IMG/VR virus record: IMGVR_UViG_2914436621_000001
Span: 32,001-96,000 of that record
Source: a virus
Taxonomy: Duplodnaviria > Caudoviricetes
DNA: 64,000 nt
Reading direction: 5' to 3' (one strand)
A model generated the notes under the pieces. It made no database searches, was not told the DNA's origin, and saw nothing but the letters and a program-made list of their open reading frames with translations. Position 1 is the first letter of the stretch; each line of letters opens with the position of its first letter. A program made the translations under genes and the position numbers. This document shows, one piece after another, positions 26,969 to 61,596 of the stretch.

Positions 26969-26972
26969 TGTT

Positions 26973-27491
26973 CTAGGGGATAGGTTGGAGATCAAAATCG
27001 TCTGGATTGAAGCCGTGGATTTCGAGGCGCGATCGCAGCCATTCCAGCTCTTCGGCTGTGAAGTCTCCAATGCCCGCAATGCCTCGCAATCCATCACGAA
27101 CATCAGCAATAGCAGTCGCGAAATCGCTCAGATGATGGGTGGTCGTCAGGGTGCCATAGAGCAAAGTGAACGCTTTATTCGCCTTTAAAGTTCGCCCCGC
27201 TCCTTCGTAGACCTTTGCCCAAGGCATCGATCGTCGCAGATCCTCAACTAGGCCATCCCAATTCTGTAAAGGCATAGGAACCGGAAGTGGAGGCAATTCC
27301 CAACTGCTCTCATTCCAGTAGTGTAGTGAGCTGGGTTGAGGCGGTTTTGCAACAACTGCCGTGCCGTCAAAATAAGCTTCTGCGGGTTCTAGCTCTTCAC
27401 CTTCTGCTAAAGCAAATCCCACAGGCAGCACCTCAGGCTTGGTGTCCATCGGCGGACTTACCACCTGATTATCAGCAATGAAATACCACAT
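26973..27491 (-). CDS. Putative tail fibre assembly protein
   Basis: Follows the fibre genes; KPPQPSSLHYW motif. Confidence 0.55.
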   Translation of the reverse strand: MWYFIADNQVVSPPMDTKPEVLPVGFALAEGEELEPAEAYFDGTAVVAKPPQPSSLHYWNESSWELPPLPVPMPLQNWDGLVEDLRRSMPWAKVYEGAGRTLKANKAFTLLYGTLTTTHHLSDFATAIADVRDGLRGIAGIGDFTAEELEWLRSRLEIHGFNPDDFDLQPIP

Positions 27492-27492
27492 A

Positions 27493-28827
27493 TCAGCCCA
27501 CCGGTAAGAGAGTTCGATTTGTTAGCAGGCCAGCGACTCCAGCTCCTTGGTGGCTGCCACCTGCCCCACCAAAGCCACCACCACCACCGCCTGCATAGCC
27601 TGTTCCCGTGCTTGTGCCAGCAGTCCCACCTGTCAGCAGAATTGTTCCTGATGGAGAATTGTTGGGCGACAGAAAAGCGCCATGCCCACCACCGCCACCG
27701 CCACCACCAAAACTGCCAGAACTGCCAGTTCCGCCAACAGCGTTGCTGCCATTGCCACCGCGCACGTCAACGGTTGAGCCTGCTTGCAGCGTGATCGAGA
27801 TGAGCGATTTTACAAGCACCAACCCACCAGAACCACCTCCTGATCCGCCAAGGGTTCCAGATGACGTGCCTAGCGTTCCAACAACGGCATTGCCGCCTCT
27901 AGCGAGAATCGAGCCGGTTGATCCCAGGATGAATGCTCCAGCGCAATCAAAAATCAATGTTCCGCCCGCATCTCCCCCCTTCGAACCAGAACCGCCTGTT
28001 CCGACGGCAGTTAAGAAGATCGTGCCGTTTGCGCCGCTTGATCCAATTGGATTGAGGAAGTAGTTGTAGGCGCTACCACCAAACACCTCGCCACCCAAAC
28101 CGCTGCCTAAGCCAGGGTTGGCAACAATAATTGTGTTGGCGTAGGCGAGTGTTCTTGCCCCGGCTCCTGCTAGGGATGTCGTAACATTTATCGTGCCATT
28201 GATAGTGCAGGTGCCACTGATATGGATCTTTGCGCCAGCAGAGATGGTCAGGGTGGCAGCAGATTCAATCGTGAAGTTGCGAAAGTAATACTCGCCCTGG
28301 TTAAACGTGGCGGTTGTGGTGAGCAAATAATCGCCTTGATCCCCACTCCCCCCAAAAACTCGGATTGCTTCTGCTCGGGGTAGTACCGGCTGTGCATCTC
28401 TCGGAAAAGCAGGGACGATCGCAGTAACAACGCCTGCCACCGTCGTCACTTGCGCTAGTGGTACAGACGCGACAGGACGTAGGATGGCTGTACTGACAAC
28501 GCCAGTTGTGGAAATGAAGACAAAAGAGGTGCTGTTGTCAGGCAGTGCTAAAGCCCCTGGAGCAATGGTGGTGATCGCCCCGTTAGGCAGCGTGATCGCA
28601 CCTCCGGTATGGTTGATGCTTAAACCGATACCAGCCGTGACCTTGAGCACGTCCCTGAACGTGCGCCATTCCTGCTTGATCTGCCCTGCCGCATTGCTCA
28701 GTTCATCGTCGGTAAGTCGAGGGTAATGCCCATCGATATCTTGGTCGTCGAAGACAAGGTTTTGGATGGCATTAAACCAAGCTGCATAAGCCCTAGAGCC
28801 ATTGGCGTAGACTGTTTTCGCCATCAA
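27493..28827 (-). CDS. Gly-rich tail fibre protein
   Basis: GGGSGG repeats; follows the baseplate genes. Confidence 0.75.
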   Translation of the reverse strand: MMAKTVYANGSRAYAAWFNAIQNLVFDDQDIDGHYPRLTDDELSNAAGQIKQEWRTFRDVLKVTAGIGLSINHTGGAITLPNGAITTIAPGALALPDNSTSFVFISTTGVVSTAILRPVASVPLAQVTTVAGVVTAIVPAFPRDAQPVLPRAEAIRVFGGSGDQGDYLLTTTATFNQGEYYFRNFTIESAATLTISAGAKIHISGTCTINGTINVTTSLAGAGARTLAYANTIIVANPGLGSGLGGEVFGGSAYNYFLNPIGSSGANGTIFLTAVGTGGSGSKGGDAGGTLIFDCAGAFILGSTGSILARGGNAVVGTLGTSSGTLGGSGGGSGGLVLVKSLISITLQAGSTVDVRGGNGSNAVGGTGSSGSFGGGGGGGGHGAFLSPNNSPSGTILLTGGTAGTSTGTGYAGGGGGGFGGAGGSHQGAGVAGLLTNRTLLPVG

Positions 28828-30200
28828 TCAATTCTCCATAACTCAACTTCGGTAAAGATTTCGGAAATAGTTGCTTCCCCGCACGCTCCTCCCAAACCGC
28901 TGCCTGCGAAGGCATTAAGGCAGTAATGGCGGATCTCAAAGTCGGTATTTGCAGCGATCGTAAAAGTGCCTTGCAGCAAGGAAAGGGAGGCTACTACATC
29001 AGTCGAGTTAGAGTAGCTTGGCTTGCCATCGATCGTTCGCGTCGAACTAGTTGCATTCCACAGAAAAATTCGATGAGCGTTAACCGCAATTCCGGGAGCA
29101 GACGCAAAAATGCGGTACGTGCCAGCTCTTAAGGTGAAGCGGTTTGAACTCAGGTTGGTGACATCGCCTGAGTTGGTAACAATCGAGTTCAGGGTTCGAG
29201 TCTGAATTCCTGCAAATGCTGACCCACCGTTTGTTCCTGATGCCTTACTATCCACAATTCGGGAATAGCGATGAACGCTATCTTTCACAAACTTGCAGTT
29301 CGCAACCCTCCCTCCATTCGTGGCGATCGCCACGTTCTGATCCTGATTGGGAGTAGTCGGGTTGCCCGTCAAAGCAGCATTGTTCAGCCGACTGACGATT
29401 TCTGCAACTGTAAATGCTGTTGTTGCCAGTCGGGTTGTGTTATTCCCAACGGTTTGTGTTGGAGCAGTCGGATTCCCTGTTAATGCCGCATTGGCTAGGG
29501 GTGCTAGCGTCACCAGAAAATCTCGCACCGCATTCGCACTGGGTGCCCACAGCGCTCCATCCCACCCGGCTGAATTGAAGGCCGTATCCTGCCCCCCGGT
29601 GCCCCCTGAATCACCTTTCGCGCCAGATTGCATCCAGTTTGAGTTAGCGATCGCGGGTGTTTGGCCTGCGGCTGGAGTGGCGCTAATCCAAATCCAGCTC
29701 GATCCCGCATAAGAAACGCAGTCGTCAAGCTGATAGTGAGTTGCAGCGTTATATTCCCCCAGGTACCTCGGCCCACCTCGTAATGCTGCGGCGTATTGCT
29801 GATTTGTGGTCAACAGCCGCGCCAACCGAGCGATCGCCGTATCCAGGGAATCGGTGCTAACGCCAGTGGGAATCAGCTCTGAGAAGTCAACCGATGCCAA
29901 ATTCGGGACAAAAGCGTGAAAGTCAATCAGCGGATCGTTGTCTAATCCGGTTTCAGTTGCAGCATTTGTTGCCCAAAACTGGAAATGATAGGTGACTCGC
30001 GCCGTCTCACTTTCGTGCAGGTTGATGTTGAGGTTGCTAGCAGTGGCAGCGATTGCAAACTTGTACAGGCGCGGCAAGACAGTGGTGTGAGGCGTTGTGG
30101 ACGAATTCACAACTGCGCTATCAGCCTGCACCCAAAGTTGACCCGCTAGAAGCTGCCCTCCAGAATCCTGAAGAGTGCCTTTAATATTGCAAAGGGACAT
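28824..30200 (-). CDS. Tail fibre protein
   Basis: Repeated AALTGNPTAPT...TRLATTAF motifs typical of P2 gpH-like fibres. Confidence 0.8.
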   Translation of the reverse strand: MSLCNIKGTLQDSGGQLLAGQLWVQADSAVVNSSTTPHTTVLPRLYKFAIAATASNLNINLHESETARVTYHFQFWATNAATETGLDNDPLIDFHAFVPNLASVDFSELIPTGVSTDSLDTAIARLARLLTTNQQYAAALRGGPRYLGEYNAATHYQLDDCVSYAGSSWIWISATPAAGQTPAIANSNWMQSGAKGDSGGTGGQDTAFNSAGWDGALWAPSANAVRDFLVTLAPLANAALTGNPTAPTQTVGNNTTRLATTAFTVAEIVSRLNNAALTGNPTTPNQDQNVAIATNGGRVANCKFVKDSVHRYSRIVDSKASGTNGGSAFAGIQTRTLNSIVTNSGDVTNLSSNRFTLRAGTYRIFASAPGIAVNAHRIFLWNATSSTRTIDGKPSYSNSTDVVASLSLLQGTFTIAANTDFEIRHYCLNAFAGSGLGGACGEATISEIFTEVELWRID

Positions 30201-30203
30201 TTG

Positions 30204-30830
30204 TTAAGCCTCAAAAACCGGATCACCGCAGGCGCTGAAACCCACGTAAAAAGCGTCGTAACAGACCAGCGAATCGCAAAACGCAGGGGAATAAAGCCGA
30301 TTCAGCTTCTCTGCCAGCTTGAACTCGGAACTCTCCCGCAGATATTTCAGTGGCAGCAGGAGATAATAAACCCATTCCGGGCTGCCCAACGTGCCTGGTA
30401 GTTCAGAAATGCCAACCAGGAATGAAGCTCCCAGCCAAACTTCATGATCGATATCAAATAGCTCAAGCAGGTAGGCTAAGACAACCTCGCTGCCTTTGTT
30501 TGCCCAGATATCAACGCCGTCGAAGGCGTTGGCAATGAGCGATCGCTTCACCTCGTCTGACCACGCCTTATCCCAGTACTCGCCAGTGAACCCGCAGAGC
30601 AGTCTCAGGAAATCCAGCCATGCCGGATCGCAAGTCGCGGGATTGAGCTGTCGGGGCAGATCGCCAACGGTAGTTTTGGTTGCAATTAGGAGTTCATCAA
30701 AGTAGACCGTTAACCAGTCTGCGATCGGTTCTCCTTCTTCTTTGCGGTAACCCTCATTGACTCCCGGCAGGCGGCTATAGATGGGGCGACCGGATTGCCA
30801 CGCTTCATAGGTGCTAGACATAGTCCTCAC
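30204..30830 (-). CDS. Baseplate/tail protein (P2 gpI-like)
   Basis: LNPATCDPAWLDFL...KGS. Confidence 0.8.
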   Translation of the reverse strand: MRTMSSTYEAWQSGRPIYSRLPGVNEGYRKEEGEPIADWLTVYFDELLIATKTTVGDLPRQLNPATCDPAWLDFLRLLCGFTGEYWDKAWSDEVKRSLIANAFDGVDIWANKGSEVVLAYLLELFDIDHEVWLGASFLVGISELPGTLGSPEWVYYLLLPLKYLRESSEFKLAEKLNRLYSPAFCDSLVCYDAFYVGFSACGDPVFEA

Positions 30831-31980
30831 CCGCTCCCTTCAAGATGGCGTATTGATTGCCAATGTCATCAATCAGCGTGCAGTAAAGGCTGTGAGCCTT
30901 GGGCAGCGAGTAGGGGTAGGGCATTGGCAAGTTGGTCGTTTGCTCGTTTAGAGTCAATGCCTGTATATAGCCGATGCCCCCGGCCAGCCGCAGTGCGTAC
31001 TCCACCTCTTTGTGAATCACACTGCTGCCTGTAGAGAACTTAGTTGGCGCAAGATAATCTTGGTACGCTTCCCAGAGGCGTTGCGCCACATCGGTTGGAT
31101 CTTCTCCAACTCCAAGCTTTGCGACCAAATCTGCATCAACGTTGACTAGGTCGATCGAGCTGACATAGAGCGACGTGCCGATCTGCGTTCTAGGGGCGAT
31201 CGCTTCATAAACCTGGCTCAACTGAGCAGAATTTGCCGCCTCTCCACTCTGGTTGAGCATAAACAAATGAACTGCCCCAAGCTGGTAGCTGATCTTGTCT
31301 CCCGATAGGAGTCCGATCGCTTTTACAACTGAGCCTTCCCCTAGAACAGCTTTGGCTTCCTGCTCATAGTCATCCGCTGTGACAATGTTGCGACGGCGAA
31401 TGGCATTCAACCCACGGGCGATCGCACTCTCTTGAGACTCCTCATCCGTTCCTCCAGCGGCGGCTTCCAGATTGATGACCGAGGCCAGATAGGTCAACGG
31501 CTGGGTGAAGCGGGTGATGGTGTAGGCAGGCAGGTTGCTTGTTGTGCCGATCGCCTCTGCTGTAGCTGGTACCGTGCCGCTAATTCCACCAGGTGGGATG
31601 GTGAGCAGGGCATTGGTTGTAAAAGTAACGCGGTTGCTGCTATCAGCGACCTGAAACCCCTGAGGAATCGTATAGGGTGTCGATAGAGGCTGAGCCAGGG
31701 TGAAGGTGACATTGACAGTTGCTTTGGTTCCTAGACGACGTTCAACGCCTGCATTCCTCAAAAACGCAATGAGCAGGGCTGCGGGCAGTTTGTTGACATG
31801 CCACAACATCTCGGCGGCACAAAATCCCATCCCCTCAACAAAGACCCTCACCACGCTGCTGGTAGAGAAGTCGTTGAGCTTTCTCTCGCTGGCGTTATAG
31901 GTTCTGACTAGCGATTGTTCTACAAGCTGGCGCTCATTCCTCGGATCTAGAACCGGGTATTCAAGTGGCTGGCTATCCAT
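30814..31980 (-). CDS. Baseplate J/gp47-like protein
   Basis: GVERRLGTKA, GGTDEES, IVTADDYE. Confidence 0.9.
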   Translation of the reverse strand: MDSQPLEYPVLDPRNERQLVEQSLVRTYNASERKLNDFSTSSVVRVFVEGMGFCAAEMLWHVNKLPAALLIAFLRNAGVERRLGTKATVNVTFTLAQPLSTPYTIPQGFQVADSSNRVTFTTNALLTIPPGGISGTVPATAEAIGTTSNLPAYTITRFTQPLTYLASVINLEAAAGGTDEESQESAIARGLNAIRRRNIVTADDYEQEAKAVLGEGSVVKAIGLLSGDKISYQLGAVHLFMLNQSGEAANSAQLSQVYEAIAPRTQIGTSLYVSSIDLVNVDADLVAKLGVGEDPTDVAQRLWEAYQDYLAPTKFSTGSSVIHKEVEYALRLAGGIGYIQALTLNEQTTNLPMPYPYSLPKAHSLYCTLIDDIGNQYAILKGAGEDYV

Positions 31981-31993
31981 GTTCTAGGGGAAG

Positions 31994-32362
31994 CTAATTG
32001 GCTAGTTGAAAGTTGAGTGGTGGCTGGGGTAAACCGTTCACAGTCCAGTAGATAGAGACGATCGCCGCCCCGTTTTCACCAATTCGACCAGTCACGTTGA
32101 ACTCGATGTTAGAAACTTCTCGCTCTAGTGCCTGTCTAACGGTTTGTGCCGTCAGGTGAACATCAGGAACTGCATTAAACAGCAGGTCGGGGGTGCCGTA
32201 CTGCGGCTGCATGATCCGTTCTAGGGGTTCTGTCTCCAAAACGGAGAGGATGTGGCAGCGAGTCAGCTCCACATCTTCTGCTAGTTTCAGCGTTCCATTT
32301 TCGATTTGAAGCGGGTATGCAATGCCCCGTTGAGTTGCCACAAATGAATCCAAGCCCTTCAC
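31994..32362 (-). CDS. gp25/GPW-like baseplate wedge protein
   Basis: LETEPLERIMQPQYGTP. Confidence 0.85.
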   Translation of the reverse strand: MKGLDSFVATQRGIAYPLQIENGTLKLAEDVELTRCHILSVLETEPLERIMQPQYGTPDLLFNAVPDVHLTAQTVRQALEREVSNIEFNVTGRIGENGAAIVSIYWTVNGLPQPPLNFQLAN

Positions 32363-32379
32363 CTATAGGCTTTGTCCAG

Positions 32380-33057
32380 TCAATCTTTCAAAAAGAGTTC
32401 TCGTTCTGCGTTCCGCCGACGAACCAGGCCAGGCAGAATACGTCCGCCAGCTTTGTTCCAGGCACGGAACTGGTCAGCGGCTGACTGATATTGCTTTTGG
32501 TTTAGCAGTCGTAAAAGGGTCGATCGCTCCAGTGCCCCAACCCCCACGTTGAAGGCAAAGCTGACCAGCGCTGCGAACTGATTGCCTGTCAGCTTGACAT
32601 TAACCAGTCGCTCGACGGCACGTTCAAACCGCTCCAAATCTGCACGGAGTAATGCCTCAGCTTCGGTTTGGGTGATGGTCATGCCCATTTTGACCCCTTT
32701 TGTTGAGCCATACCCGATTGTGGGCACTCCCGCAGGGCATTTGTATGCCGCCAGCCTGCACCCTTCAAATTCTTTGATCAGGCTCAAACCAGCCTGATTG
32801 ATTTGGCGTGATTTGGGGGCGATCGCTTCAACGGGCTTGCCATCAACCTCAACATGCCTACCAAACACGATCCACTCATGTCGCCCCAGAAGCGGAGTGA
32901 GCAGTACCACGCGTAAGTGCCCGTTATCGGTTGGTTCAAAGGAGTGAATTTGAAACACATCGCCTCTGGCGACAAAGACTTTCTGATCTGGGGCAAGTTG
33001 AGAGGCTTGATCCGTGGAAAATTTAAACGCTGTAGGTTCTGTGGTCTTGAGTTGCAT
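32380..33057 (-). CDS. GH24 lysozyme (endolysin) with N-terminal accessory domain
   Basis: LIKEFEGCRLAAYKCPAGVPTIGYG, ALVSFAFNVG, GLVRRRNAERELF. Confidence 0.93.
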   Translation of the reverse strand: MQLKTTEPTAFKFSTDQASQLAPDQKVFVARGDVFQIHSFEPTDNGHLRVVLLTPLLGRHEWIVFGRHVEVDGKPVEAIAPKSRQINQAGLSLIKEFEGCRLAAYKCPAGVPTIGYGSTKGVKMGMTITQTEAEALLRADLERFERAVERLVNVKLTGNQFAALVSFAFNVGVGALERSTLLRLLNQKQYQSAADQFRAWNKAGGRILPGLVRRRNAERELFLKD

Positions 33058-33096
33058 TGTTGAGCATGAAATGAGGTCTCAACAATGGGGTTTGTC

Positions 33097-33411
33097 CTAT
33101 AAGATTTTGTTCATCTTGCGTTTATCCAAATCTTGAATTGCAGCCCAAAGTGTTGCGATCGCCCCCTCAATTTGGGTCAGCCGAGTGGATAATGTGCTGA
33201 TTTGAGTGCTTAGTGTGGCGATCTGAGCTGTTGTTGGTGAATCCGATGGTGAAGCGCTCATCAATCTCACTATCAGGTGAGAGAATGCCTGTTCACTTGG
33301 TGTTTTGCTGATTCCATCCTCCCACTGCTGCGATTTCAGCGCGGCAACATCAGCGGTCGATAGCGCTCCTTTCTGGACAAATTTATCTGTGTATTTCGTG
33401 CGAATCATCAA
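33097..33411 (-). CDS. Hypothetical coiled-coil protein
   Basis: Overlaps the spike gene stop. Confidence 0.6.
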   Translation of the reverse strand: MMIRTKYTDKFVQKGALSTADVAALKSQQWEDGISKTPSEQAFSHLIVRLMSASPSDSPTTAQIATLSTQISTLSTRLTQIEGAIATLWAAIQDLDKRKMNKIL

Positions 33412-34037
33412 TATCCTCTCGTTTCCAAAACGTCCCCATCGGAATCAACTGCGCCAATCGTGGCAACATCCTTGCCGTTGATGGTGACACCGCTACTGGT
33501 CAGCTCTAGGGTGTACCCTCCAACTTGAAGCTTGATGCGCTCTCCTGCTTTGATAGTCAGGCTTTTCCCTACCTCAATGGTTTGAGTTTCACCCACCGTG
33601 AGAATGTCATCTTTGCCGATTTTGAGGACGCGATCGCCTTCAATCGTCCGAGCATCATCATTGATTGGATCGTCACTCTCGCGTTCAGGGTTGGGTAGGT
33701 TGGTGATCACCCCCCCGTAAATCCCTTGATGTGGGTCTCCATTGATGAAGCGGACTTCAACTGTCATTCCTGGTTTAGGTATCTGCGGATCGTCGCTATG
33801 GCTATTGGTCGATCGCCATAGCCAGTCCGTTTCAACCTTGCCCCCGGTATGCTGAAGGGTGCATTTGATGCGCCGTTTCCCCAATGGATCATCATTGCGG
33901 GTGACAATACCTAAATAGGTGAATGGGAGCCGCCCTTTCAGGTCGTTGGCAATCTGGCTGGCTTGTTTGCCTGATCGCAGCAGTTTAAAGATTTCACTCA
34001 TGTTCTGGGGGAGGATTGATGGCTGAGTGGCTAGCAC
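33408..34037 (-). CDS. Baseplate spike (gpV/gp5 OB-fold)
   Basis: GIVTRNDDPLGKRRIK...PKPGMTVEVRFINGDP; beta-helix-like C-terminus. Confidence 0.85.
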   Translation of the reverse strand: MLATQPSILPQNMSEIFKLLRSGKQASQIANDLKGRLPFTYLGIVTRNDDPLGKRRIKCTLQHTGGKVETDWLWRSTNSHSDDPQIPKPGMTVEVRFINGDPHQGIYGGVITNLPNPERESDDPINDDARTIEGDRVLKIGKDDILTVGETQTIEVGKSLTIKAGERIKLQVGGYTLELTSSGVTINGKDVATIGAVDSDGDVLETRGY

Positions 34038-36235: not shown

Positions 36236-36254
36236 GGCTTAGGTTTGGAGCGCC

Positions 36255-36545: not shown

Positions 36546-36751
36546 ATACCCACTTCGTTATTAAGCCAACTCCGCCTTTAAACTCAATCATTTGGGGATT
36601 GACCCCATGCTTTCTAGCTATGGCGATCGCCGCATCCGGGTCAACAGCCAGAAACTCTATTCCATAAATCAGTCCGTACTCAGTTCCTACGATTTCAAGG
36701 GTGTGACGAAATGGCAGCGGGCGTGGAATTCGCTCGCACCATAGACGCACC

Positions 36752-48325: not shown

Positions 48326-48326
48326 T

Positions 48327-53624: not shown

Positions 53625-53638
53625 GTTCTAGGGGATTG

Positions 53639-53836
53639 TTATGAGGCCGTTTCAGGCGGCGCAAATCCGGTCATTGCGCCCGTAAAAGCGTCGATGACTC
53701 GTCGAGGAAACTGCTGCTCCATTTGATCCAATAACTCGTCTTCTGACAGGTCGGGCTGGTTGTCTACAAACTCAACCAGCCGCTGAAGCTGTTCAGATTC
53801 TTGAGGCGATAACTCTTCGTTCATGGTGCGATTCAA
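53639..53836 (-). CDS. Small acidic protein
   Basis: 65 aa, Glu/Asp-rich. Confidence 0.55.
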   Translation of the reverse strand: MNRTMNEELSPQESEQLQRLVEFVDNQPDLSEDELLDQMEQQFPRRVIDAFTGAMTGFAPPETAS

Positions 53837-53884
53837 ACACTAATCCAGTATTAACAATCCTGCTGGCCTTTGATAAGCGGGAAT

Positions 53885-54475: not shown

Positions 54476-54484
54476 CAGATTTGC

Positions 54485-55138: not shown

Positions 55139-56356
55139 TTAAACCTCGGCGTAATAGTCACTAAACCCGTCCGGGTTGAACGCCAGATAGGGCAGATTGT
55201 GGTCGTCAACCAGTTGAATCCAGCCCCCGCTGCTGTCACGTTTGGCAGCATATGCAAAGCAGGCAGCTCGTGCCGGAGAAGCTTTGATTCGGGCATCACT
55301 CCAAACCATTTGCAGCAGATCTCGATAGGTCATCCAGTTCGACCAGTTCTCTGCTTCTCGGCACACCTGGTGAGCTGTCGCCCCAACGTAATGCCCGATG
55401 CACAATTTGCCTTTGGGGAATTTGGGGCAGAGAAAGTCTGCAAATTCGTTGAAGCTGATCAGGTCTGTGGTCTGAAGTTGGCGATCATGGCACCAATTCA
55501 CAAAGTCCTGAAGTACTCCAAATGTTTTGGGATAGAGCTGGTGATACGGCTCGAAGTAGTTGGAGCGGTTGGGTTGTCCTGCGCTGAACACTTCTAACCC
55601 CACGTCGGTGACCATCTGCCGCAGCTCCAGCCACTGCTGAAACTCATCCGGGTCAGGGTTACGTTTCTGCGCCCGTTTGATGATGCTCTCCCCGATCGCC
55701 TCCCTCCCCCGTTGCGGCATATTGCGGAGTTGTTTGTAGTTGAAGTGGATGGTTTCCGTCCAGACGCCATGCACACCACAATCTTTCAACCGCTTCAGCA
55801 ATTTAGGCGCTTGTTCTAGGGGAAGCCATTCTGGAGTCCACGGGTTCAGCCCGACGTTAACGGTGTGGCCTCTGCTGGTGAGCGTTTCGAGTAGGGAGAG
55901 GCGATCGCCAATCGACGGTGCACCTGGCTCAAGTCTGGCTCGAAGGTCATCGTCGAGCATGGCAATTGACACATACCAGCAGCTCGGCGGCAGGAATTCT
56001 AGCGCTTCCTCAATCCCTCGTCCCCCTTTGGTCTGGAGAGCGATCGGGATGCCTAGCTCAGTCATAGTCCGCATGACTGGGATGGACTGCTGGAAGTTGG
56101 AGGTAGCGAACGGATCAACACGGTTGGAGATGAGCACACCGTAGCCTTGTTGCAGTAGTTTTGCTTCTAAGGTCTGGCGGTTGTGATAGTCAGAGAGCAG
56201 CCGCATTGTCGCTTTAATGTCAGCGCGGCGATCGGGCTGGTTAAGGTTGGCGAAGCAATAGTGACAATTGTGACTACACCAATTGAATGAGGCTTCGAGG
56301 GGGAGCGGTGAGATCAAAAGCTCCCCATAGTAAACGCTGATGCTATCTCCAGCCAT
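55139..56356 (-). CDS. Radical SAM protein (spore-photoproduct-lyase-like)
   Basis: CSHNCHYC; SNRVDPF, QTK, LEPGAPS..RL. Confidence 0.9.
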   Translation of the reverse strand: MAGDSISVYYGELLISPLPLEASFNWCSHNCHYCFANLNQPDRRADIKATMRLLSDYHNRQTLEAKLLQQGYGVLISNRVDPFATSNFQQSIPVMRTMTELGIPIALQTKGGRGIEEALEFLPPSCWYVSIAMLDDDLRARLEPGAPSIGDRLSLLETLTSRGHTVNVGLNPWTPEWLPLEQAPKLLKRLKDCGVHGVWTETIHFNYKQLRNMPQRGREAIGESIIKRAQKRNPDPDEFQQWLELRQMVTDVGLEVFSAGQPNRSNYFEPYHQLYPKTFGVLQDFVNWCHDRQLQTTDLISFNEFADFLCPKFPKGKLCIGHYVGATAHQVCREAENWSNWMTYRDLLQMVWSDARIKASPARAACFAYAAKRDSSGGWIQLVDDHNLPYLAFNPDGFSDYYAEV

Positions 56357-56405
56357 TGTTTTCCTTTGCTAAAACTTTTATACAGGCTTGGCTTCGCGCC
56401 TCCCG

Positions 56406-57005
56406 TTAGCCCTGTTCCGCTGCCCGACGAGCAGCTTTGGCAGCTCTGCGTTCAGCTTCCTGTCGCTGCTGCAAGGCATCGTTTCTTTGCCGTGCATCTC
56501 GCTCCATCCTTGTGAAGGATGGGTTCCTGCCCGATCGCCCAACCAGTTCAGATCGGAACGTCTGAACAACTCTTTCGTTGTTTCTTTCAGCGGTAGACAT
56601 TCGGTTGTACAGGGATTCTGCGATCGCCTGCGCCCCAGCGCTGACACGAACCCCCAAACCCGCATCTGAGGAGGCGATCGCCTGAATACTTTGATTACTG
56701 ATGACTGCGATGACGACATCCGCCTTGCCTTCAGCAGACAGTCGGTCAAAAGTGTCTGGATTTTTTAGATATTGCAATCCTTGCTCCAGTCGAGTGGTTG
56801 GGCCGCCCAATTCCTGCACTTCTCCCGATCGCTGATCGAATGGAGTGCTTTGTAGCGCCTTCACCTCTGCAATAGTCTGCTCAGCAAATGAGGAAACTTG
56901 GCTGTCAGTTGGAGGGCGATCGCCATTTAAGGCTTCAGCCCCACCACTTTTTGAGGTGGCCGCAGCAAATTTCCCGCTCTTCCAAGAGCCGCCCTTACTC
57001 GCCAT
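56406..57005 (-). CDS. Protein with MASKGGSWK leader (copy 4)
   Basis: N-terminus MASKGGSWKSGKF. Confidence 0.75.
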   Translation of the reverse strand: MASKGGSWKSGKFAAATSKSGGAEALNGDRPPTDSQVSSFAEQTIAEVKALQSTPFDQRSGEVQELGGPTTRLEQGLQYLKNPDTFDRLSAEGKADVVIAVISNQSIQAIASSDAGLGVRVSAGAQAIAESLYNRMSTAERNNERVVQTFRSELVGRSGRNPSFTRMERDARQRNDALQQRQEAERRAAKAARRAAEQG

Positions 57006-57702
57006 TCAGCCGTACCCCTAGTTCCATTATTTTGAGGAGCGTTTTTGTGTCGTCCTTTGTCTCCAACACGACCTTGAAACCTTCCCACATCTTCTTTTGA
57101 GCGGAGGACAGCACGATCGCCAACGGATATTTCTCCTGCGGCGATTTGGAGACAGCGGTATCATCCTCCCCTTCCTGTTCTCCTTCCCCTAGAACAGAGC
57201 GATCGCTATCACTGTCATCTCCATCGCCAATCACCTGGGATGACTGGAATTCAACCCCCTCGTCTTCAAGGAACTTGTCAATTTCTGCGGGATCGAAGCC
57301 TGTCAGCCCTAAATCAAAATCCAGGCTATCTAGATCTTCGAGTTCGATAGAGAGAGCTTCATAGTCATAGCCTGACTCGGCAGACCGATTGTCTGCTAAC
57401 CGTGCCGCCTTCTTCTGAGCTTCTGATAGGTCAGCTCGGACGATGACGGGTACGCGGTCTAGACCCAGTCTAAGAGAGGCTTCTCGTCGTCCATGCCCCT
57501 TCAGGATGATGCCCTGCTCATCCACTACGATGGGTTGGTCGAAACCGAATTCTGCGATCGCTCCTGCAATCTTGTCGATCTGGCTGGTGGGATGCTTTTT
57601 GACATTGTTAGCGTAGGGAGTGAGGCTGTCAGGGTGACGCCACTCGATTTCAGCAGAAAAGACGGTTTTAGATTTGGACATAGGGGACAAAAACGCTCTC
57701 AC
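56995..57702 (-). CDS. ParB/Srx N-terminal domain protein
   Basis: LTPYANNVKKH, FGFDQPIVVD, GHGRREA, RLADNR. Confidence 0.9.
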   Translation of the reverse strand: MRAFLSPMSKSKTVFSAEIEWRHPDSLTPYANNVKKHPTSQIDKIAGAIAEFGFDQPIVVDEQGIILKGHGRREASLRLGLDRVPVIVRADLSEAQKKAARLADNRSAESGYDYEALSIELEDLDSLDFDLGLTGFDPAEIDKFLEDEGVEFQSSQVIGDGDDSDSDRSVLGEGEQEGEDDTAVSKSPQEKYPLAIVLSSAQKKMWEGFKVVLETKDDTKTLLKIMELGVRLNGE

Positions 57703-57723
57703 CTATGGGATTTGTCCAGAACC

Positions 57724-58695
57724 TCAAACATCCATCAGATCTGCTAGCATCTCCGTCACCTTGCCCTGGGCATTGACGCGATTGTCGTCGTAACGCATGA
57801 GAACCTCAGGCTTGCGGTGACGGCTCAGCTTCATGGTTTCCCGAATATTGCCATTGCTGGCATCCAACGCCGCCGTAATCCCGCTGTGGCGGCAGCGGTG
57901 GGGTGAGAACCGCTTTTTGATACCCGCCTTCTCTGCCAACTGAAACCGAACTAAGTGATAGAGTCCGTCTCCAGTCAAGCGTTGACCAAAGTGGGCGCGA
58001 TCGACTGCAATAAATAGCGGTGACTTGGGCGCGCGATCGCCCCTTGCTTCCAGCCACACCTGGAGGGCTTCAACTGCGGCACTGCTCAGGCTAACCGATT
58101 CTTTCTGGGTGCCCCTCCCCTTCCCCAGGATGGCTAGAGTTTTGGCTTCAGGATTAAAGTCTGCAACGTTGGCAGAACAAATCTCATTACGCCGCAGCAC
58201 ATTATCCCAGAGCAGCCGTAGGAGGGCGTAGTCACGCTTACCCTTAAGCGTTGAGCGATCGACGACTTGAAACAGCAGCTTGAATTCCTCTGGAGTAATG
58301 CCCGTGGTATCCCGATAGGTCTCGGTTTTCTCCAGTTCAATTTCTTCTAAGCTCCAAACACATTTGCCTACTTTCTGTGCAAAGGCAACGAGTGACTTAA
58401 TTGCAGACAGCCGTACATTGACGGTGGATTCGCTCAGCTCTCGTTTAATCAGTTGAGCTTTATAGTGCAACACCAGTTTGATGGCAGTGGCACGCTCCAA
58501 CTGAAGGAAATGCGCGACAAGTGCCGGGTCAGGCTCTTTGCCACTGATGACTTCAAAGAAATCCTTTAATCCCCTGGCATAAGTGCGACGGGTGCTCTCG
58601 CTCCGCTTGTCTGCCAGTAATTCTTGGATGAGATCTCGCTCCTCTACCAAATCGAGAAAGAAGGGAGACGAGGAAGAAGGGGCGATCGCACTCAT
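57724..58695 (-). CDS. XerC/D-like tyrosine recombinase (probable resolvase)
   Basis: RDYALLRLLWDNVLRR, SPHRCRHS, LSRH...LMRY; clear paralog of 668-1642. Confidence 0.92.
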   Translation of the reverse strand: MSAIAPSSSSPFFLDLVEERDLIQELLADKRSESTRRTYARGLKDFFEVISGKEPDPALVAHFLQLERATAIKLVLHYKAQLIKRELSESTVNVRLSAIKSLVAFAQKVGKCVWSLEEIELEKTETYRDTTGITPEEFKLLFQVVDRSTLKGKRDYALLRLLWDNVLRRNEICSANVADFNPEAKTLAILGKGRGTQKESVSLSSAAVEALQVWLEARGDRAPKSPLFIAVDRAHFGQRLTGDGLYHLVRFQLAEKAGIKKRFSPHRCRHSGITAALDASNGNIRETMKLSRHRKPEVLMRYDDNRVNAQGKVTEMLADLMDV

Positions 58696-58700
58696 GGGGA

Positions 58701-58730
58701 AGCTAATGATAATGGGCGTTTTCGTTAGTT
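58701..58730. promoter_or_regulatory. dif/lox-like inverted repeat, candidate recombinase site
   Basis: agctaatgataa-tgggcg-ttttcgttagtt: 12-6-12 with 9/12 arm match, 5 nt upstream of the recombinase ATG. Confidence 0.5.
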
Positions 58731-58779
58731 AGAAATGCTTGATATATATGCGTTTCAGCGATCGCCGTGTAATGGCAAT

Positions 58780-58805
58780 AAAAAACCCCGCCAATGACGG
58801 GGTTT
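58780..58805 (-). terminator. Intrinsic terminator
   Basis: aaaaaaccccgccaatgacggggttt hairpin after the 58837 stop. Confidence 0.7.
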
Positions 58806-58836
58806 GTGTGAGTTGAGAAGGGGAGAAATTACGAAA

Positions 58837-59679
58837 TCATGCAGGTTGCAAGGATTTGTGCATTTTTTGAGCTTCAGTCAGCAATCCGTTGTAAACCTTG
58901 GCCTCCTCTTTCTTGTATTTGAGGGCGATCGCCTGTGCCACCTTAGTCAGCCAAGCTTGAGCCTGGTCGCTTTGAGCTGCAATTTCATCAAGGTACTCTG
59001 AACGATCTTTCTCCGGAATCAGGCGCTCCAGGCAAATGCGGTAACGATTGATCACCTGAAACTCAAAGTTCTTAGGCAGCTTCATTTTGCTGGACTTTCT
59101 CGCCTTTGGCTTTGATGCTTCCGTATCAGATTCAGGTTCGGAGACAGGTGGTTCTGCAACTGCCGTTGTCGCGCCGTTTTGAACTTGAGGCTGTGTGTTT
59201 ATGAATGTCGTAATTCGAGCGCCAACCCGCTCACGAACCCGCTGCTCAAGCGAACCGTCTTTCATCCGCTGGGATAGGGCTTGATCAATTGCTTCGTTCA
59301 CCGCCTTATCTACTTCCTGGTCAATTACCTGATCTACGGTCTGGTCAATCGTTGCAGTTGCCATTGCTGGTGACTCCAGTTCATCTTCATCAAACGATGA
59401 CTCTGATTCTAGACCACCCTCAAGGGTAGAGCCTTGCCAATGAACCGCTTTCGCAAAGCAAATTAGCAATCGATCGCCTCCCAGCACCAAAAATGCCATG
59501 CGGCGAATGTGCTCCAGTCTTACCATTAACTCGTTCACCTGTTCTAGATCGAAGCAGTGAATTTGGATTTGGTTGTCCGCATCCCGGTACAGACCGACTT
59601 TGCCCACTTGCAGAATGTCATCAGCAAACCGGCTGAAGCGCGATCGCTCCAACTTACTAAAATCTTCGTTGGTCAACAT
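58837..59679 (-). CDS. Hypothetical protein
   Basis: 280-aa ORF. Confidence 0.7.
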   Translation of the reverse strand: MLTNEDFSKLERSRFSRFADDILQVGKVGLYRDADNQIQIHCFDLEQVNELMVRLEHIRRMAFLVLGGDRLLICFAKAVHWQGSTLEGGLESESSFDEDELESPAMATATIDQTVDQVIDQEVDKAVNEAIDQALSQRMKDGSLEQRVRERVGARITTFINTQPQVQNGATTAVAEPPVSEPESDTEASKPKARKSSKMKLPKNFEFQVINRYRICLERLIPEKDRSEYLDEIAAQSDQAQAWLTKVAQAIALKYKKEEAKVYNGLLTEAQKMHKSLQPA

Positions 59680-59715
59680 GGCGGCAGTAATTCTCTATCT
59701 ATGGGGCGCGTCCAA

Positions 59716-60198
59716 TTAGAGTAGGGTTCTGACAATTTCAGCCAACCGCAACAAGGCTTCGTAGTACGTCTCTTGCAAGTAACGCTCAAAGCTATCAGTC
59801 AGGGTTGAATGGGCAAAGTAATGTGCCATCAGTTGACCCAGCTCCGGGCAGTCTGGCTCGAAGTGTTGGGCGATCGCGCTGCTGTAGGGTTCTGGCAGCC
59901 GATAGAGTGCCTTCCGCATCGTGTCGCTGTCGAGTTGGCTCTCTAATGGGCGACCAGGAATGAGTTGTTCTAGGGGAAGGTACAGACGGGAGAGATCGTA
60001 GACCTCGTCGAGTGTTCCTGCCCAAAATTTAGCTAGGCAATCTTCCAGTTCAGCCAGGTCAGCGTAGCTTGTGACCGTATCAATCTCGTCGATCGCATCT
60101 GAAACCGAGACGAAGGCATCTTCCAGGGTGAGGGTTTCAAGCATGTCCGCCTCCATCAATACTGAAGAGGTTGGCGCGGAAATCGGAACGGGAACCAC
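59716..60198 (-). CDS. Acidic hypothetical protein
   Basis: GGAGG RBS before an internal Met. Confidence 0.65.
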   Translation of the reverse strand: MVPVPISAPTSSVLMEADMLETLTLEDAFVSVSDAIDEIDTVTSYADLAELEDCLAKFWAGTLDEVYDLSRLYLPLEQLIPGRPLESQLDSDTMRKALYRLPEPYSSAIAQHFEPDCPELGQLMAHYFAHSTLTDSFERYLQETYYEALLRLAEIVRTLL

Positions 60199-60613
60199 AT
60201 TCTTGGCGAGCCAGTTCTTTCTCTGCTTTGGCAGTCAGCAGACGGGTGTCGTGTGCTTCGTCAATTTCGATGATCCGCTGCATATTCGCCGCCATCCATC
60301 GCCGAACTTCAGCCTTCTGTCGAGACGACATCTGCCCATCTTTGAGATGCTCTTCGACAATTCGCAATGCTCCCTGGCGGGTAGAGCGGCTTTTACTTTT
60401 AGTGCCAAGCCGTTTTTTTAGGTTGTAGTGAATCGTGGAGCGGGGAGTTTGAAGATGCTTTTCCAGCGCTCTGACAGTCCAACCCCGAAGAAATAATAGG
60501 CAGGCGCGATCGGCTATGGCGGCATTCATGATGAATCTGTGGCGAGTTGGGTGGGGGCCGTCATTTCTCGCTACAGACCGAAGAGAAGGCGATCGCCGTC
60601 TGAGCAGAACCAA
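60137..60613 (-). CDS. HTH protein
   Basis: GWTVRALEKHLQTPRSTIHYNL. Confidence 0.65.
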   Translation of the reverse strand: MVLLRRRSPSLRSVARNDGPHPTRHRFIMNAAIADRACLLFLRGWTVRALEKHLQTPRSTIHYNLKKRLGTKSKSRSTRQGALRIVEEHLKDGQMSSRQKAEVRRWMAANMQRIIEIDEAHDTRLLTAKAEKELARQECGSRSDFRANLFSIDGGGHA

Positions 60614-60732
60614 TGAAAGGCGTATTTACAATCTGCCCTGTCCTAAATTTAGTAGTACTAGTGATTCAACGGAAACTCTTCATATTGAGTTGCAAAAGAT
60701 ACTGTGTAGTTCCCGTAAAGTGGTGCTTCTGA

Positions 60733-61596
60733 TTAACTAGAAAACCGTGATTTTAACCGCATCCATTGGCTGCGTAGCCACCAGAACTTGCTAGATTCCA
60801 TCGCATCAACTCTGGATTCGGCGCGCTTGAGGCGATTACGCACCTGCTTCAATTCACGATGCATCTGCTCTACTTCTGCTGTTACGGGATTTGGAGCATC
60901 TAGAGATTGATAAAATTCAGCGATCGCTTGCCGGTTGCTCGTTTTTCCTTTCACCCAATAGGCTTGATCTGTCTCGATGCGTTCAAGCAGTGGCTTTTCA
61001 CTATGCCTGACACAAAAATCGTAGAAAGCCTCTCTACATCCCTCCCAATAACCAAAATCGTCTAGAACGGTACAGCCGCCATTGGGAACCAACGGGTAAA
61101 ACTTTTCCAGTACTTCTGTTACGGAAGAGTACCAGTCCGCATCACAGTGCAGGAGTGCAACTTTGGTTGGACCATCTTCCTGAAATGTGTCACTAAACCA
61201 TCCTGCTTTAATGATGTAGCGCTCAGATGATGTGCCGACGCGCTGCATTACTTCATGCACGTCATTGGGACTGGCAGCACACTCACCGATGTACTGTTTA
61301 GCGTCCTCTCCATCTCTCTCTGTGGTCTGGGGCATCCCCTGGAACCCTTCATACAGCCAGAGGCGGCGATCGCCCATAAATTGCGACAAGACTGCCGCCG
61401 ATCCTCCTTTAAACGCACCGCATTCGACAATGTCGCCTTCAATCCTCTGATTATTCAAGTATTGGCAAATCCGAATTAAATTTTTCAGCCGTCCCTCTGA
61501 CAGCAGGGTGTGCGATCGAACTTGCTCAATTAGAGATGCGATTGCCTTGGGCGAATAATCTTGCATTTCCTTCCCCCTAGAACGTGATTTTGCCAA
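60733..61596 (-). CDS. TylF/MycF/NovP-family O-methyltransferase
   Basis: IEGDIVECGAFKGGS, GWFSDT, LLHCDADWYSS, VLDDFGYWEGC. Confidence 0.9.
   Translation of the reverse strand: MAKSRSRGKEMQDYSPKAIASLIEQVRSHTLLSEGRLKNLIRICQYLNNQRIEGDIVECGAFKGGSAAVLSQFMGDRRLWLYEGFQGMPQTTERDGEDAKQYIGECAASPNDVHEVMQRVGTSSERYIIKAGWFSDTFQEDGPTKVALLHCDADWYSSVTEVLEKFYPLVPNGGCTVLDDFGYWEGCREAFYDFCVRHSEKPLLERIETDQAYWVKGKTSNRQAIAEFYQSLDAPNPVTAEVEQMHRELKQVRNRLKRAESRVDAMESSKFWWLRSQWMRLKSRFSS

Follow-up and report, generated by a model that had tools for sequence, protein, structure and literature searches.

A non-palindromic DNA word confined to cyanobacterial mobile elements and a previously undescribed protein domain that is probably its reader

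Genome-wide iterated words such as HIP1, DUS and Chi are among the clearest signs that DNA is read on the scale of a genome. The operators of phage P1 C1, which are asymmetric, and the sites of Noc, SlmA and MatP form sets of a dozen to about 70 dispersed sites at which one DNA-binding protein organises or silences a replicon; these sites are mostly intergenic or palindromic, their readers belong to the HTH, ParB and TetR families, and to our knowledge none of the sets occurs as dialects across unrelated mobile elements. DUS are found about once per 1-2 kb, and inverted pairs of them occur. Dialects are described for the DUS/USS of Neisseriaceae and Pasteurellaceae in the relevant part of PMC3630211. 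The Cluster A mycobacteriophages (L5, Bxb1 and TipsytheTRex) carry more than 20 asymmetric 13-bp repressor sites, the stoperators, across the genome; according to the passages of PMC9283540 that deal with them, their orientation follows transcription and they lie in promoters and short intergenic gaps, and related phages are reported to have diverged stoperator sites (PMC6550527). The HIPs, as parts of PMC4390886 and PMC5861425 present them, are GC-rich 8-nt palindromes found throughout the chromosome with a density above one per kb, and a section of the latter source describes the reader of HIP1 as still unknown after decades.

The window analysed here, a stretch of DNA of 64,000 nucleotides, holds the left part of prophage B, a myovirus-like element of about 67.7 kb in a cyanobacterium. 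Its ends are a 62-bp tRNA-Ser att repeat, identical over 62 nt at contig 57900-57961 and 125684-125745, the second copy sitting within tRNA-Ser(GCT) (L002:9683-9773). In the left part, genes for lysis, tail, head and packaging are followed by early genes, and the Pfam and PHROGs matches of the prophage are to baseplate J, W and V, sheath, tube, tape measure, major head, portal, terminase and lysozyme. Prophage A, of 57.9 kb, lies 1 kb from prophage B in the same cell and contains no copy of the word. A preliminary description of this DNA had located 20 copies of a 10-mer in prophage B; all 20 positions and strands correspond to exact copies of CCCCTAGAAC, listed here with the features that frame them (window coordinates).

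25898..25959, no strand: attL of prophage B, formed by the 3' part of tRNA-Ser(GCT) as a direct repeat of 62 bp
25960..64000, no strand: left 38 kb of prophage B, the whole element reaching window-equivalent ~93681
26970..26979, minus: word copy, 1 nt 5' of the ATG of a small membrane-like ORF
31187..31196, minus: word copy within the baseplate J gene, sense
31338..31347, plus: word copy within the baseplate J gene, antisense
31981..31990, minus: word copy, intergenic, immediately 5' of the baseplate J ATG
32218..32227, minus: word copy in the gp25/W-like gene, sense
34737..34746, minus: word copy in the gpD-like hub/CHAP gene, sense
36338..36347, plus: word copy in a 96-aa ORF, antisense
37516..37525, plus: word copy in the tube-like gene, antisense
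39654..39663, plus: word copy in the tape-measure gene, antisense
43799..43808, minus: word copy, intergenic, immediately 5' of the ATG of ORF 43181-43798
46962..46971, plus: word copy, intergenic, in the divergent region 5' of the scaffold-like gene
48083..48092, plus: word copy in a 238-aa ORF, sense
49456..49465, minus: word copy in the portal gene, sense
49673..49682, plus: word copy in the portal gene, antisense
50397..50406, plus: word copy in a 180-aa ORF, sense
53625..53634, minus: word copy upstream of the large terminase gene, immediately 5' of the ATG of ORF 53178-53624
55813..55822, minus: word copy in the radical-SAM gene, sense
57186..57195, plus: word copy in the ParB_N-domain gene, antisense
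59967..59976, minus: word copy in a 160-aa ORF, sense
61574..61583, plus: word copy in the TylF-like methyltransferase gene, antisense

The rarity by chance that had been estimated for the word was borne out, 100 dinucleotide-preserving shuffles giving 0.03 copies on average and never more than 1 against the 20 present, and so was its absence from window positions 1-26000, where HIP1 occurs 48 times (68 times in 26001-64000). The copies in the span first given for the repeat, 26970..61583, stand, but its end does not: 61583 is merely the last copy within the window, and copies run on for 27 kb beyond the window, to window-equivalent 91018 on the contig, for a total of 33. Of the 41 copies in the whole genome, 33 are in prophage B; prophage A has none, and the 7.25 Mb that are left have 8, and the claim that the word belongs to element B thus survives the comparison with element A and the host. 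The word read backwards, as a control, occurs 10 times across the whole host genome. The conserved word is longer than 10 nt, W-CCCCTAGAAC-R, with a span of 11-12 nt. Position -1 is T in 23 of the 33 prophage B copies versus 1 of the 8 copies outside the element, and position +10 is A or G in 32 of 33 versus 2 of 8. Around the 33 copies the sequence is unconserved outside -3 to +10. Inside prophage B there are 33 exact copies versus 5 one-mismatch variants, and the 12-mer TCCCCTAGAACA is found 19 times there and nowhere else in the genome. The word differs from its own reverse complement; its copies in prophage B have a mean gap of 2002 nt (about one per 2 kb) and stand in mixed runs on the plus (20) and minus (13) strands, and a strand bias tracking replication or packaging direction, as with Chi and KOPS, is absent from the prophage. 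The oligonucleotide form of the canonical word is CCCCTAGAACA.

Most copies had been placed inside genes, and 26 of the 33 are indeed within ORFs, 13 sense and 13 antisense, the other 7 being intergenic or at ORF edges; the part that is intergenic is roughly double the non-coding fraction but still a minority. The four copies reported next to start codons (26970, 31981, 43799 and 53625) do lie 0-1 nt 5' of an ORF-opening ATG, and at 26970 the TAG of the word doubles as the stop codon of the upstream ORF 26973-27491. The same scoring of 177 sites in 13 elements, based like that of prophage B on our own crude ORF calls, gave 62 sense and 61 antisense sites and 54 that are intergenic or edge an ORF. 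The word has no transcriptional polarity and would be read on double-stranded DNA. When the 94 ORFs of prophage B were subjected to 200 synonymous shuffles, the codon-preserving comparison suggested at the outset, 5.74 copies remained on average and never more than 8, against the 33 observed, about five copies staying fixed because they lie outside the shuffled ORFs. The portal copy at 49456 encodes SPRT, whose last residue is N in all six homologs, and the portal copy at 49673 encodes VLG with codons unlike those that a homolog uses for the same residues; both fall in gap-free columns of a seven-protein alignment. Point substitutions create the word, contrary to codon usage and in both orientations relative to genes.

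The candidate reader is the C-terminal domain, of about 105 aa, of a 615-aa ORF at contig 119513-121360 (L002:3511-5355), outside the window and near the integrase end of prophage B:

L002:5023-5355: C-terminal domain of the prophage B protein

This domain is previously undescribed and is probably the reader of the word beside which it is encoded. Among 401 sampled genomes of the class its gene is present in 36, including all five word-dense genomes, and among the ORFs of prophage B it alone has matches in 13 of the 16 regions that bear the word, against 4 for the second-best ORF. Public data contain 237 clusters of the family at 50% identity. The domain is predicted to consist of a helix, a three-stranded sheet and a long helix (model pLDDT 97), an arrangement that may resemble AP2-like beta-sheet DNA-binding domains. 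No shared Pfam family was found, none of 35 members matching any at E <= 1, and Foldseek gave no match of the domain model at E <= 0.001, listing WRKY entries at E 2-5 and TM 0.16-0.22. The domain profile had a single match among PDB sequences, WRKY1 at E = 1.2, the best Z in a VIA search with the sheet core was 3.6, and in the ESM Atlas clusters of the Pfam family DUF6788 lie at TM 0.56-0.71 to the domain. The N-terminal partners of the domain vary (adenine DNA methyltransferases, AlkB-like dioxygenase, HNH, SH3-like repeats): the 65 longer relatives include MethyltransfD12 in 7, phage Dam in 5, HNH in 1 and RHH in 1, a fusion to a 2OG-Fe(II) oxygenase exists, and one fused methyltransferase, from Leptolyngbya, is annotated as Dam-family. 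The prophage B protein has SH3-like repeats as its N-terminal part, no enzyme domain and no HTH, and its gene is not adjacent to a Cro/CI-like gene. A methyltransferase-like tail was judged by eye in the domain protein of G345:C1. A pilin-like ORF adjoins the domain gene in one clade only (G345:C1, L024). At L021-L023, L025, G108 and G303 a local word copy lies 20-40 nt 5' of the domain-coding stretch, and at many loci a copy sits where the variable N-terminal part gives way to the conserved domain.

At least four further cyanobacterial genomes have mobile elements in which the word is clustered, each found from the word alone: G004 (27 copies in the genome, 15 in C1:10749-71341 and 7 in C41), G345 (22 copies in C1:2771932-2817934, which corresponds to an element with a split helicase gene at its borders and a serine recombinase at one of its ends), G247 (25 of 32 copies within 140 kb) and G185 (20 copies). 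These dense stretches are elements of 40-140 kb and are not chromosome-wide; the highest count in any of the 401 genomes is 52, and the backwards-read control reaches 40 in the same genome. The canonical word is common to phages of unrelated build and a plasmid-like contig. The G004:C1 element has a gene content like that of the word-free prophage A, and a prophage on C45 of the same genome has a B-like portal and 0 copies. Variant words one or two letters off, CCCCCAGAACR, TCCACTAGAAC and TGCCCCCAGAA, mark further elements, most of these dialect loci having been picked through the presence of the domain. In G373, 25 of 32 CCCCCAGAACR copies fall in C1:1395584-1463363, beginning beside its domain gene; in G338, 21 of 23 copies of TCCACTAGAAC fall in a 41-kb stretch around its domain gene, and the same count is 13 of 13 in G289, 5 of 5 in G108 and 3 of 3 in G303. 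The TCCACTAGAAC carriers form one well-supported clade of the domain tree. On IMG/VR contigs TGCCCCCAGAA occurs 14 times and 8 times. Inverted word pairs are present in G247 and G338.

Like the stoperators, the word is a short asymmetric, phage-specific site present in 20-35 copies over one temperate phage genome, with a reader that is probably monomeric and phage-encoded; unlike them, it is even in orientation (13/13 in prophage B, 62/61 overall) and lies mainly within ORFs (26/33), its candidate reader is without HTH and away from the Cro/CI-like gene, and phages of unrelated build share it with a plasmid-like contig. With DUS it has in common a non-palindrome of 10-12 nt in both orientations, in and between genes, with exact copies far outnumbering near-copies and with dialects of one or two letters. 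However, DUS mark the chromosome of a naturally competent host and have a competence pilin as their reader, whereas the word marks mobile elements only and is near background in host DNA; a Pfam search of prophage B found no pilin-like protein. The likeness to HIP lies in the same phylum, in being written by substitution through coding DNA against coding preferences and in a possible link to an orphan methyltransferase, but the word is a non-palindrome of 11-12 nt confined to mobile elements, and HIP1 itself is equally dense in prophage B and the host. As with P1 C1, Noc, SlmA and MatP, many dispersed specific sites are found on one replicon. A dispersed repeat (IS ends, MITE, REP) was considered and rejected on the random flanks beyond -3 to +10 and the gap-free portal columns. 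The word fits no definition of a stoperator, DUS or HIP.

We propose, with somewhat better than even confidence, that the elements carry W-CCCCTAGAAC-R as an address tag and that the domain of about 105 aa reads it. Cyanobacterial temperate phages and plasmid-like elements would write the word along their own dsDNA, about once per 2 kb, in either orientation and within and between genes; the domain, as the most likely reader, would bring the attached modules, whether DNA-acting or bridging, to the DNA of the element itself. Binding of the word by the domain would serve modification or repair targeting, silencing or compaction. The dialects track one element-encoded protein family and point to a specific reader. 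Of the earlier proposal of a binding or modification site for a phage protein, which is favoured by the confinement of the word to elements and its co-occurrence with one element-encoded domain, modification is weighed below as a rival. Several findings stand against the domain as reader. Just 11 of 40 regions found through the domain contain at least 5 copies of one iterated 9-mer; a close relative in G035:C29 has 0 word copies in 15.6 kb; L021-L025 carry 1-2 copies each, at the domain gene itself and in a host-gene context; G004:C41 has 7 copies and no domain gene of its own, the sole one in that genome being on C1; and neither Foldseek nor the VIA search found a fold match to a known DNA-binding domain. 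Residue-level co-variation is weak because the sheet residues vary widely among proteins that share the canonical word, and the co-variation of word and domain at clade level could also reflect shared ancestry. A broader and more tentative reading is self-recognition tagging by cyanobacterial temperate phages and plasmids, in which an 11-nt word through the whole element is combined with a new kind of domain that reads it and so brings methyltransferases, repair enzymes, nucleases or bridging modules to DNA in which the word occurs. If this is true, an element could treat its own DNA unlike that of the host and of rival elements, the dialects would be compatibility or immunity groups, and the system would be to mobile elements what DNA uptake sequences are to their hosts; it might also explain the origin of iterated words like HIP1.

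That the word is instead a target of DNA modification, most likely adenine methylation, with the domain as the specificity or targeting part of a methyltransferase, seems to us rather unlikely. Its abundance would then come from modification-linked repair bias or from selection, as proposed for HIP sequences, and such a role is consistent with the fusion of 12 of the 65 longer relatives to adenine methyltransferases of two Pfam families, with the Dam-family annotation in Leptolyngbya and the tail in G345:C1, and with the cognate methyltransferase to which each alternate HIP is tied in the part of Elhai 2015 (PMC4390886) that treats them. However, a Pfam search of prophage B returned no DNA methyltransferase, its TylF-like enzyme being of the small-molecule O-methyltransferase type, PHROGs gave a weak partial match alone (phrog_2060, E 1e-06), and the prophage B domain protein has no enzyme domain; 53 of the 65 relatives have no methyltransferase. 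We think it improbable that the copies are nicking or recombination hot spots, where the HNH-like neighbour of the domain gene, or else a partner of the domain protein, would act as a site-specific nuclease that cuts the word and stimulates exchange between co-resident elements, although this would account for phages of unrelated build sharing it. An HNH-like gene, its motif read by eye with no Pfam match, lies directly 5' of the domain gene in G004:C1, G345:C1 and G345:C2, one relative is fused to HNH, and the word copies at the domain junction of many loci, together with a 279-nt segment of 78% identity that prophages A and B share in genes of the domain locus, would suit such exchange. But prophage A has the HNH-like gene and 0 copies, prophage B lacks a homolog of that gene, and the shared segment (contig 120466-120744) is unflanked by copies, the nearest being at 120005 and 120929.

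A readerless by-product of mutation or repair, a HIP-like drive acting solely within these elements, would fit the excess of exact over near-copies (33 to 5) and the origin of copies by substitutions that override protein conservation, as HIP1 copies reportedly arise. A repair bias acting in trans should mark the chromosome too, yet the other 7.25 Mb holds 8 copies and the co-resident prophage A, at a distance of 1 kb, holds none; the dialects moreover follow one element-encoded protein family, and we regard this explanation as having a slim chance. Still far less credible is a compositional relic of a word-rich former host, or a longer repeat (IS, MITE) mistaken for an iterated word. Such repeat artefacts do occur, since in G064 9 of 10 copies of the 12-mer belong to one identical multicopy repeat, but in prophage B the flanks are unconserved beyond -3 to +10 and the portal sites show no insertions. 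As to a former host, the suggestion of a HIP-like signature acquired in a different host was not supported: none of the 401 sampled genomes is word-rich, the maximum being 52 copies, and where the word is dense it marks an element, not a chromosome. HIP1 is at least as dense in prophage B (1.77 per kb; 117 copies in 66 kb counted) as in the host (1.33 per kb), and the element is therefore adapted to this host.

The preferred reading, an address tag read by the domain, concerns a word confined to an element with exact borders, for which prophage A and the host chromosome serve as same-cell controls; the dialect elements are natural specificity variants, and the single candidate reader is small enough to purify, so the question is directly testable. 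If the domain binds the word, it would represent a new DNA-binding domain family, and the odd C-terminal extensions on phage Dam-type methyltransferases would be accounted for. The word is also usable as a practical marker, having traced the borders of prophage B and of the G345 element.

All 20 copies of the word, a non-palindromic 10-mer, that the preliminary description had listed were recovered at their positions and strands by a pattern search of the window, where 100 dinucleotide-preserving shuffles averaged 0.03 copies and never exceeded 1. The run had been said to end inside the window; its copies there stand as claimed, but it goes on for another 27 kb, to window-equivalent 91018. The host genome (G000; 7.31 Mb, 148 contigs) holds 41 copies, 34 of them on C148, the contig that contains the window (at 32003-96002), and 33 of these at contig positions 58972-123020; the other 7.25 Mb has 8. 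The contrast drawn earlier with HIP1, the cyanobacterial iterated palindrome, is upheld, with 48 HIP1 sites in window 1-26000, 68 in 26001-64000 and 1.33 per kb across the genome. The excess of the word is real, larger than first claimed and far past chance.

The 33 clustered copies belong to one prophage, B, which is flanked by a direct repeat:

Contig C148, 57900-57961: left copy of the 62-bp att direct repeat, the 3' part of tRNA-Ser(GCT)
Contig C148, 125684-125745: right copy of the same repeat, adjoined by an integrase gene

The two repeats and the integrase at the right copy delimit B as an element of about 67.7 kb with all 33 copies inside. Pfam and PHROGs identify it as a contractile-tailed temperate phage with baseplate J, W and V, sheath, tube, tape measure, major head, portal, large terminase and lysozyme genes, together with a Cro/CI-like HTH gene and two tyrosine recombinases. 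To its left lies prophage A, of the siphovirus type, which has a Terminase_3 large terminase and an integrase of its own abutting the left att copy. Equal density of the word in A is refuted, its 57.9 kb holding no copy.

Inside B the word extends beyond ten letters: position -1 is T in 23 of 33 copies, against 1 of 8 outside B, and position +10 is A or G in 32 of 33, against 2 of 8. An alignment of the 33 copies gives a preference for pyrimidines at -2 and -3 and random flanks further out. The 12-mer form TCCCCTAGAACA occurs 19 times in B and nowhere else in the host genome, and one-mismatch variants are scarce in B (5 versus 33 exact copies). Copies are spaced on average 2002 nt apart (sd 1598).

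The word is written into coding sequence at a cost. The codon-preserving shuffle proposed earlier as a check, run 200 times on the 94 called ORFs of B, left 5.74 copies on average and never more than 8, versus 33 observed, about 5 of the 33 lying outside the shuffled ORFs and hence remaining constant. The codons that the word imposes are CTA (12.6% of Leu codons in B) and AGA or AGG (11.7% and 8.4% of its Arg codons). When the B portal protein was aligned with six homologs (41-47% identical), both of its word copies fell in gap-free columns; one encodes NVLGGA, with the same residues as a homolog in different codons, and the other encodes SPRT, whose last residue is N in all six homologs. These gap-free columns and the changes in codon and residue indicate that copies originate by substitution, not insertion, and that a conserved residue can be overridden. 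Balanced orientation is likewise confirmed: by our own crude ORF calls, on which these tallies rest, B has 13 sense, 13 antisense and 7 intergenic or ORF-edge copies, and 177 sites in 13 elements divide into 62, 61 and 54. Intergenic copies are about twice as common as the non-coding fraction alone would predict, mostly owing to a single genome (G247). Along B, 20 plus-strand and 13 minus-strand copies fall in mixed runs with no transcription polarity. An RNA-read signal, promoter, terminator or start-associated signal was rejected, as those would be strand-specific and the word is not.

A survey took in 41 relatives first and 401 genomes of the class afterwards; none of them exceeds 52 copies, so that no sampled host is word-rich. 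The same maximum led us to reject the earlier suggestion of a HIP-like signature acquired in a former host. Clusters recur elsewhere. In G004, of the same family, 15 of 27 copies lie in C1:10749-71341 and 7 in C41:1679-19072; in G345, of another family (41% GC), C1:2771932-2817934 holds 22 of 45 and a 63-kb contig another 7, the backwards-read control scoring 0. The C1 cluster of G345 has A or G at +10 and A or T at -1 in all 22 copies, and its element, which sits between the halves of a split DEAD/RecQ-type helicase gene and carries a large serine recombinase at one end, is spanned by the word from border to border, as is B. Outside its two clusters this 3.6-Mb genome has 16 dispersed 10-mer copies (control 0), which may be remnants of older elements or reflect a process leaking onto the host chromosome. 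In G247, 25 of 32 copies lie within 140 kb, mostly between ORFs, and include four pairs of the shape GTTCTAGGGG-N10/11-CCCCTAGAAC; G185 has 20 copies on small contigs. Dispersed copies are found in G403, G082 and G202 (23-38 versus 2-12 for the control), with no clusters in these three and no domain gene (see below) in G202. G064 was discarded as a word-bearing genome because its excess is one multicopy repeat.

Outward-facing inverted pairs of fixed spacing were observed in many copies in G338:C1:16409-55708 (starts 28-29 nt apart) and G247:C1:2745916-2848479 (20-22 nt apart). The result is a perfect hairpin or a two-fold site; close pairs of this kind are absent from B.

The word moves independently of the structural genes, for the word-rich element on C1 of G004 shares its genes mainly with the word-free A and not with B, whereas a prophage of the same genome whose portal is 47% identical to that of B, on C45, has none of the genome's 27 copies. 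Portal homologs 41-47% identical to that of B exist in 6 other genomes, of which the one scanned in full (G004:C45) is word-free; no close relative of B was found in IMG/VR by portal, and no word cluster near the G264 portal locus among the matches listed.

What accompanies the word is a domain formed by the last ~105 residues of a 615-aa ORF of B (contig 119513-121360; L002:3511-5355 in the extracted locus, with the domain itself at L002:5023-5355). When the ORFs of B were compared with 16 word-bearing regions it matched 13, the next best ORF matching 4, most of these regions having been picked through the domain itself; free of this bias are the five genomes that were picked out by the word, every one of which encodes the domain. 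Across the class the domain is present in 36 of the 401 genomes. The word-free A shares the neighbouring genes, a DUF3854 primase and an HNH-like gene, but after them comes a 670-aa protein whose C-terminus is different. Word density is locally highest at the domain gene: B has 3 copies there within 1.3 kb, G345:C1 has 4 within 1.2 kb and G185 has 3 within 1.8 kb. Against the link, of 40 regions located by way of the domain no more than 11 have at least 5 copies of one word-type 9-mer; the close relative G035:C29 has no word copy in 15.6 kb. At five loci (FACHB-63, Phormidium tanganyikae and a Pseudanabaenales MAG) a small domain gene stands among host genes with 1-2 word copies, at the gene itself; these may be remnants. 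The HNH-like neighbour (g72 family) was rejected as determinant because it is present in the word-free A, and the ParB_N, radical-SAM, ART and TylF-like proteins and the DUF5131-TcmP pair of B were rejected because they have no homologs in other word-dense regions.

Around more distant domain genes the words are related yet different, including CCCCCAGAACA, TCCACTAGAACC and TGCCCCCAGAA. In G373, CCCCCAGAACR occurs 32 times genome-wide (control 2), 25 of them in the 68 kb running on from its domain gene (C1:1395584-1463363); this element also shares the DnaJ-like, the AlkB-like and two other genes of B. In G338, 21 of 23 copies of TCCACTAGAAC (control 4) surround the domain gene in C1:14871-55708, and every copy adjoins the domain gene in G289 (13/13), G108 (5/5) and G303 (3/3). 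Two IMG/VR contigs have 14 and 8 copies of TGCCCCCAGAA, all of which carry G at -1 and show no constraint past AGAA, and G383 has seven 9-mers of the TCTACCAGAAC type. The carriers of TCCACTAGAAC form one clade (100/98 support) in a maximum-likelihood tree of 42 domains. Among domain proteins with the canonical word the residues of the sheet differ considerably, which also speaks against the link.

No Pfam or NCBIfam family covers the domain, and none of 35 members matches a shared Pfam family. A profile search of 1.84 billion representatives returned 237 proteins at E <= 0.001, and in nearly all of the best 150 of these the domain is C-terminal. The AlphaFold2 model (35-row alignment; pLDDT 97) predicts a helix (2-25), three strands (33-39, 46-52 and 72-77) and a second helix (81-110). 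Foldseek and VIA gave no credible fold match to the 111-aa model or a 63-aa core model, whole-model matches being dominated by the helical hairpin; ESM Atlas rows (TM 0.56-0.71) were cyanobacterial hypothetical proteins, Dam fusions and DUF6788 clusters, and a search for literature on DUF6788/PF20586 found none. The profile had a single weak match among PDB sequences, a WRKY domain (E = 1.2); with only this and poor-TM Foldseek rows behind it, a supposed likeness to AP2/WRKY was set aside, and we claim no fold. The 65 longer relatives include MethyltransfD12 in 7, the phage Dam family in 5, and HNH, RHH and TIR in one each. One relative is fused to a 2OG-Fe(II) oxygenase; B carries a gene of this Pfam family immediately upstream of its domain gene, whose start it overlaps. 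The fusion partners mostly act on DNA as enzymes.

Taken together, the data require a signal in double-stranded DNA that is element-specific, sharp, costly to coding, and variable by lineage along with a single protein family that the elements encode. A cognate pair of site and reader, with the C-terminal domain as putative reader, would be the simplest account; the best supported reading of the word is as a binding site, its copies being candidate sites, and we rate it as the dispersed cognate sites of a mobile element. In the proposed mechanism the C-terminal domain would read the word, and the varied N-terminal parts would be cargo delivered to, or assembled on, word-tagged DNA. The purpose might be to direct methylation or repair to the element's own DNA, to silence or compact the prophage, or to tell co-resident elements apart. 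There is a fair chance that the word represents a new kind of self-tagging system.

The alternatives are weaker to differing degrees. The word could instead be the target of a modification, as the preliminary description had allowed beside a binding site; methylase fusions of the domain are on record, and we regard this as unlikely but the most serious of the rivals. Nicking or recombination hot spots we hold improbable. To the same slight degree we credit a repair drive acting without a reader. A former-host relic or a repeat artefact is scarcely credible given the portal columns and the survey of the class.

Among known systems, DNA uptake sequences are non-polar and sharp, come with dialects and inverted pairs, and lie on host chromosomes; the word resembles them in length, non-polarity, sharpness, dialects and inverted pairs but, unlike them, does not mark host chromosomes. 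The reader of DNA uptake sequences is a minor pilin, and this likeness lends interest to a ~210-aa protein with a type IV pilin N-terminal methylation motif observed near the domain gene at two related loci, L014:12514-13149 (G345:C1) and L024:2622-3248; Pfam finds no protein of this kind in B. The stoperators of Cluster A mycobacteriophages, as described in PMC9283540, are oriented with transcription and lie between genes; they are like the word in copy number, asymmetry and phage specificity, but the word is neither transcription-oriented nor, as a rule, between genes. HIP1 and the alternate HIPs share with the word the phylum and the manner of writing through genes, yet they are palindromes spread chromosome-wide (PMC4390886 and PMC5861425); Elhai 2015 (PMC4390886) mentions no phage or prophage. 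Since a defining feature of each of the three was looked for in the word and found lacking, we file it under none of them. Full-text literature searches with the word and its complement gave only unrelated primer-type matches among those listed.

Several features of the two prophages were recorded besides. A spans window 1-25897 and C148:1-32002 (loci L005 and L006), its left end running off the contig, and encodes Terminase_3, a tail tube, a 2670-aa ORF, a sigma factor, an N6_N4 methylase and the DUF3854 primase; A and B stand in tandem at one shared tRNA-Ser att copy. The repeats proper to A are GTCCGGAATTCCGGAC, a 16-bp palindrome present at contig 22362 and again at 44053 (window 12051), and CAAATCCGCAAC, which forms inverted pairs at contig 10316/10329, at 46300/46313 (window 14298/14311) and at 55036/55061 (window 23034/23059); they look like hairpins or operators. 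A single 279-nt segment is common to A and B at 78% identity (C148:53830-54108, window 21828-22106, versus 120466-120744); lying within the 670-aa and 615-aa proteins and encoding a small beta-rich repeat domain, it is a sign of exchange between the two. Rfam finds no family in window 25000-64000, including a 270-nt stretch at window 40621-40890, between the tail tube and tape-measure genes, that recurs with 88% identity at C63:52762-53031 and about 74% at two sites in G004:C1; a 95-aa ORF across it looks spurious, and the stretch may be a small mobile or RNA-coding piece. Finally, B carries a row of ADP-ribosyltransferase-like, radical-SAM and ParB_N-domain genes (window 54488-57702) and a DUF5131 gene paired with a TcmP (three-Cys-motif partner) gene (L001:14623-16731), which are possible DNA-modification or counter-defence genes.
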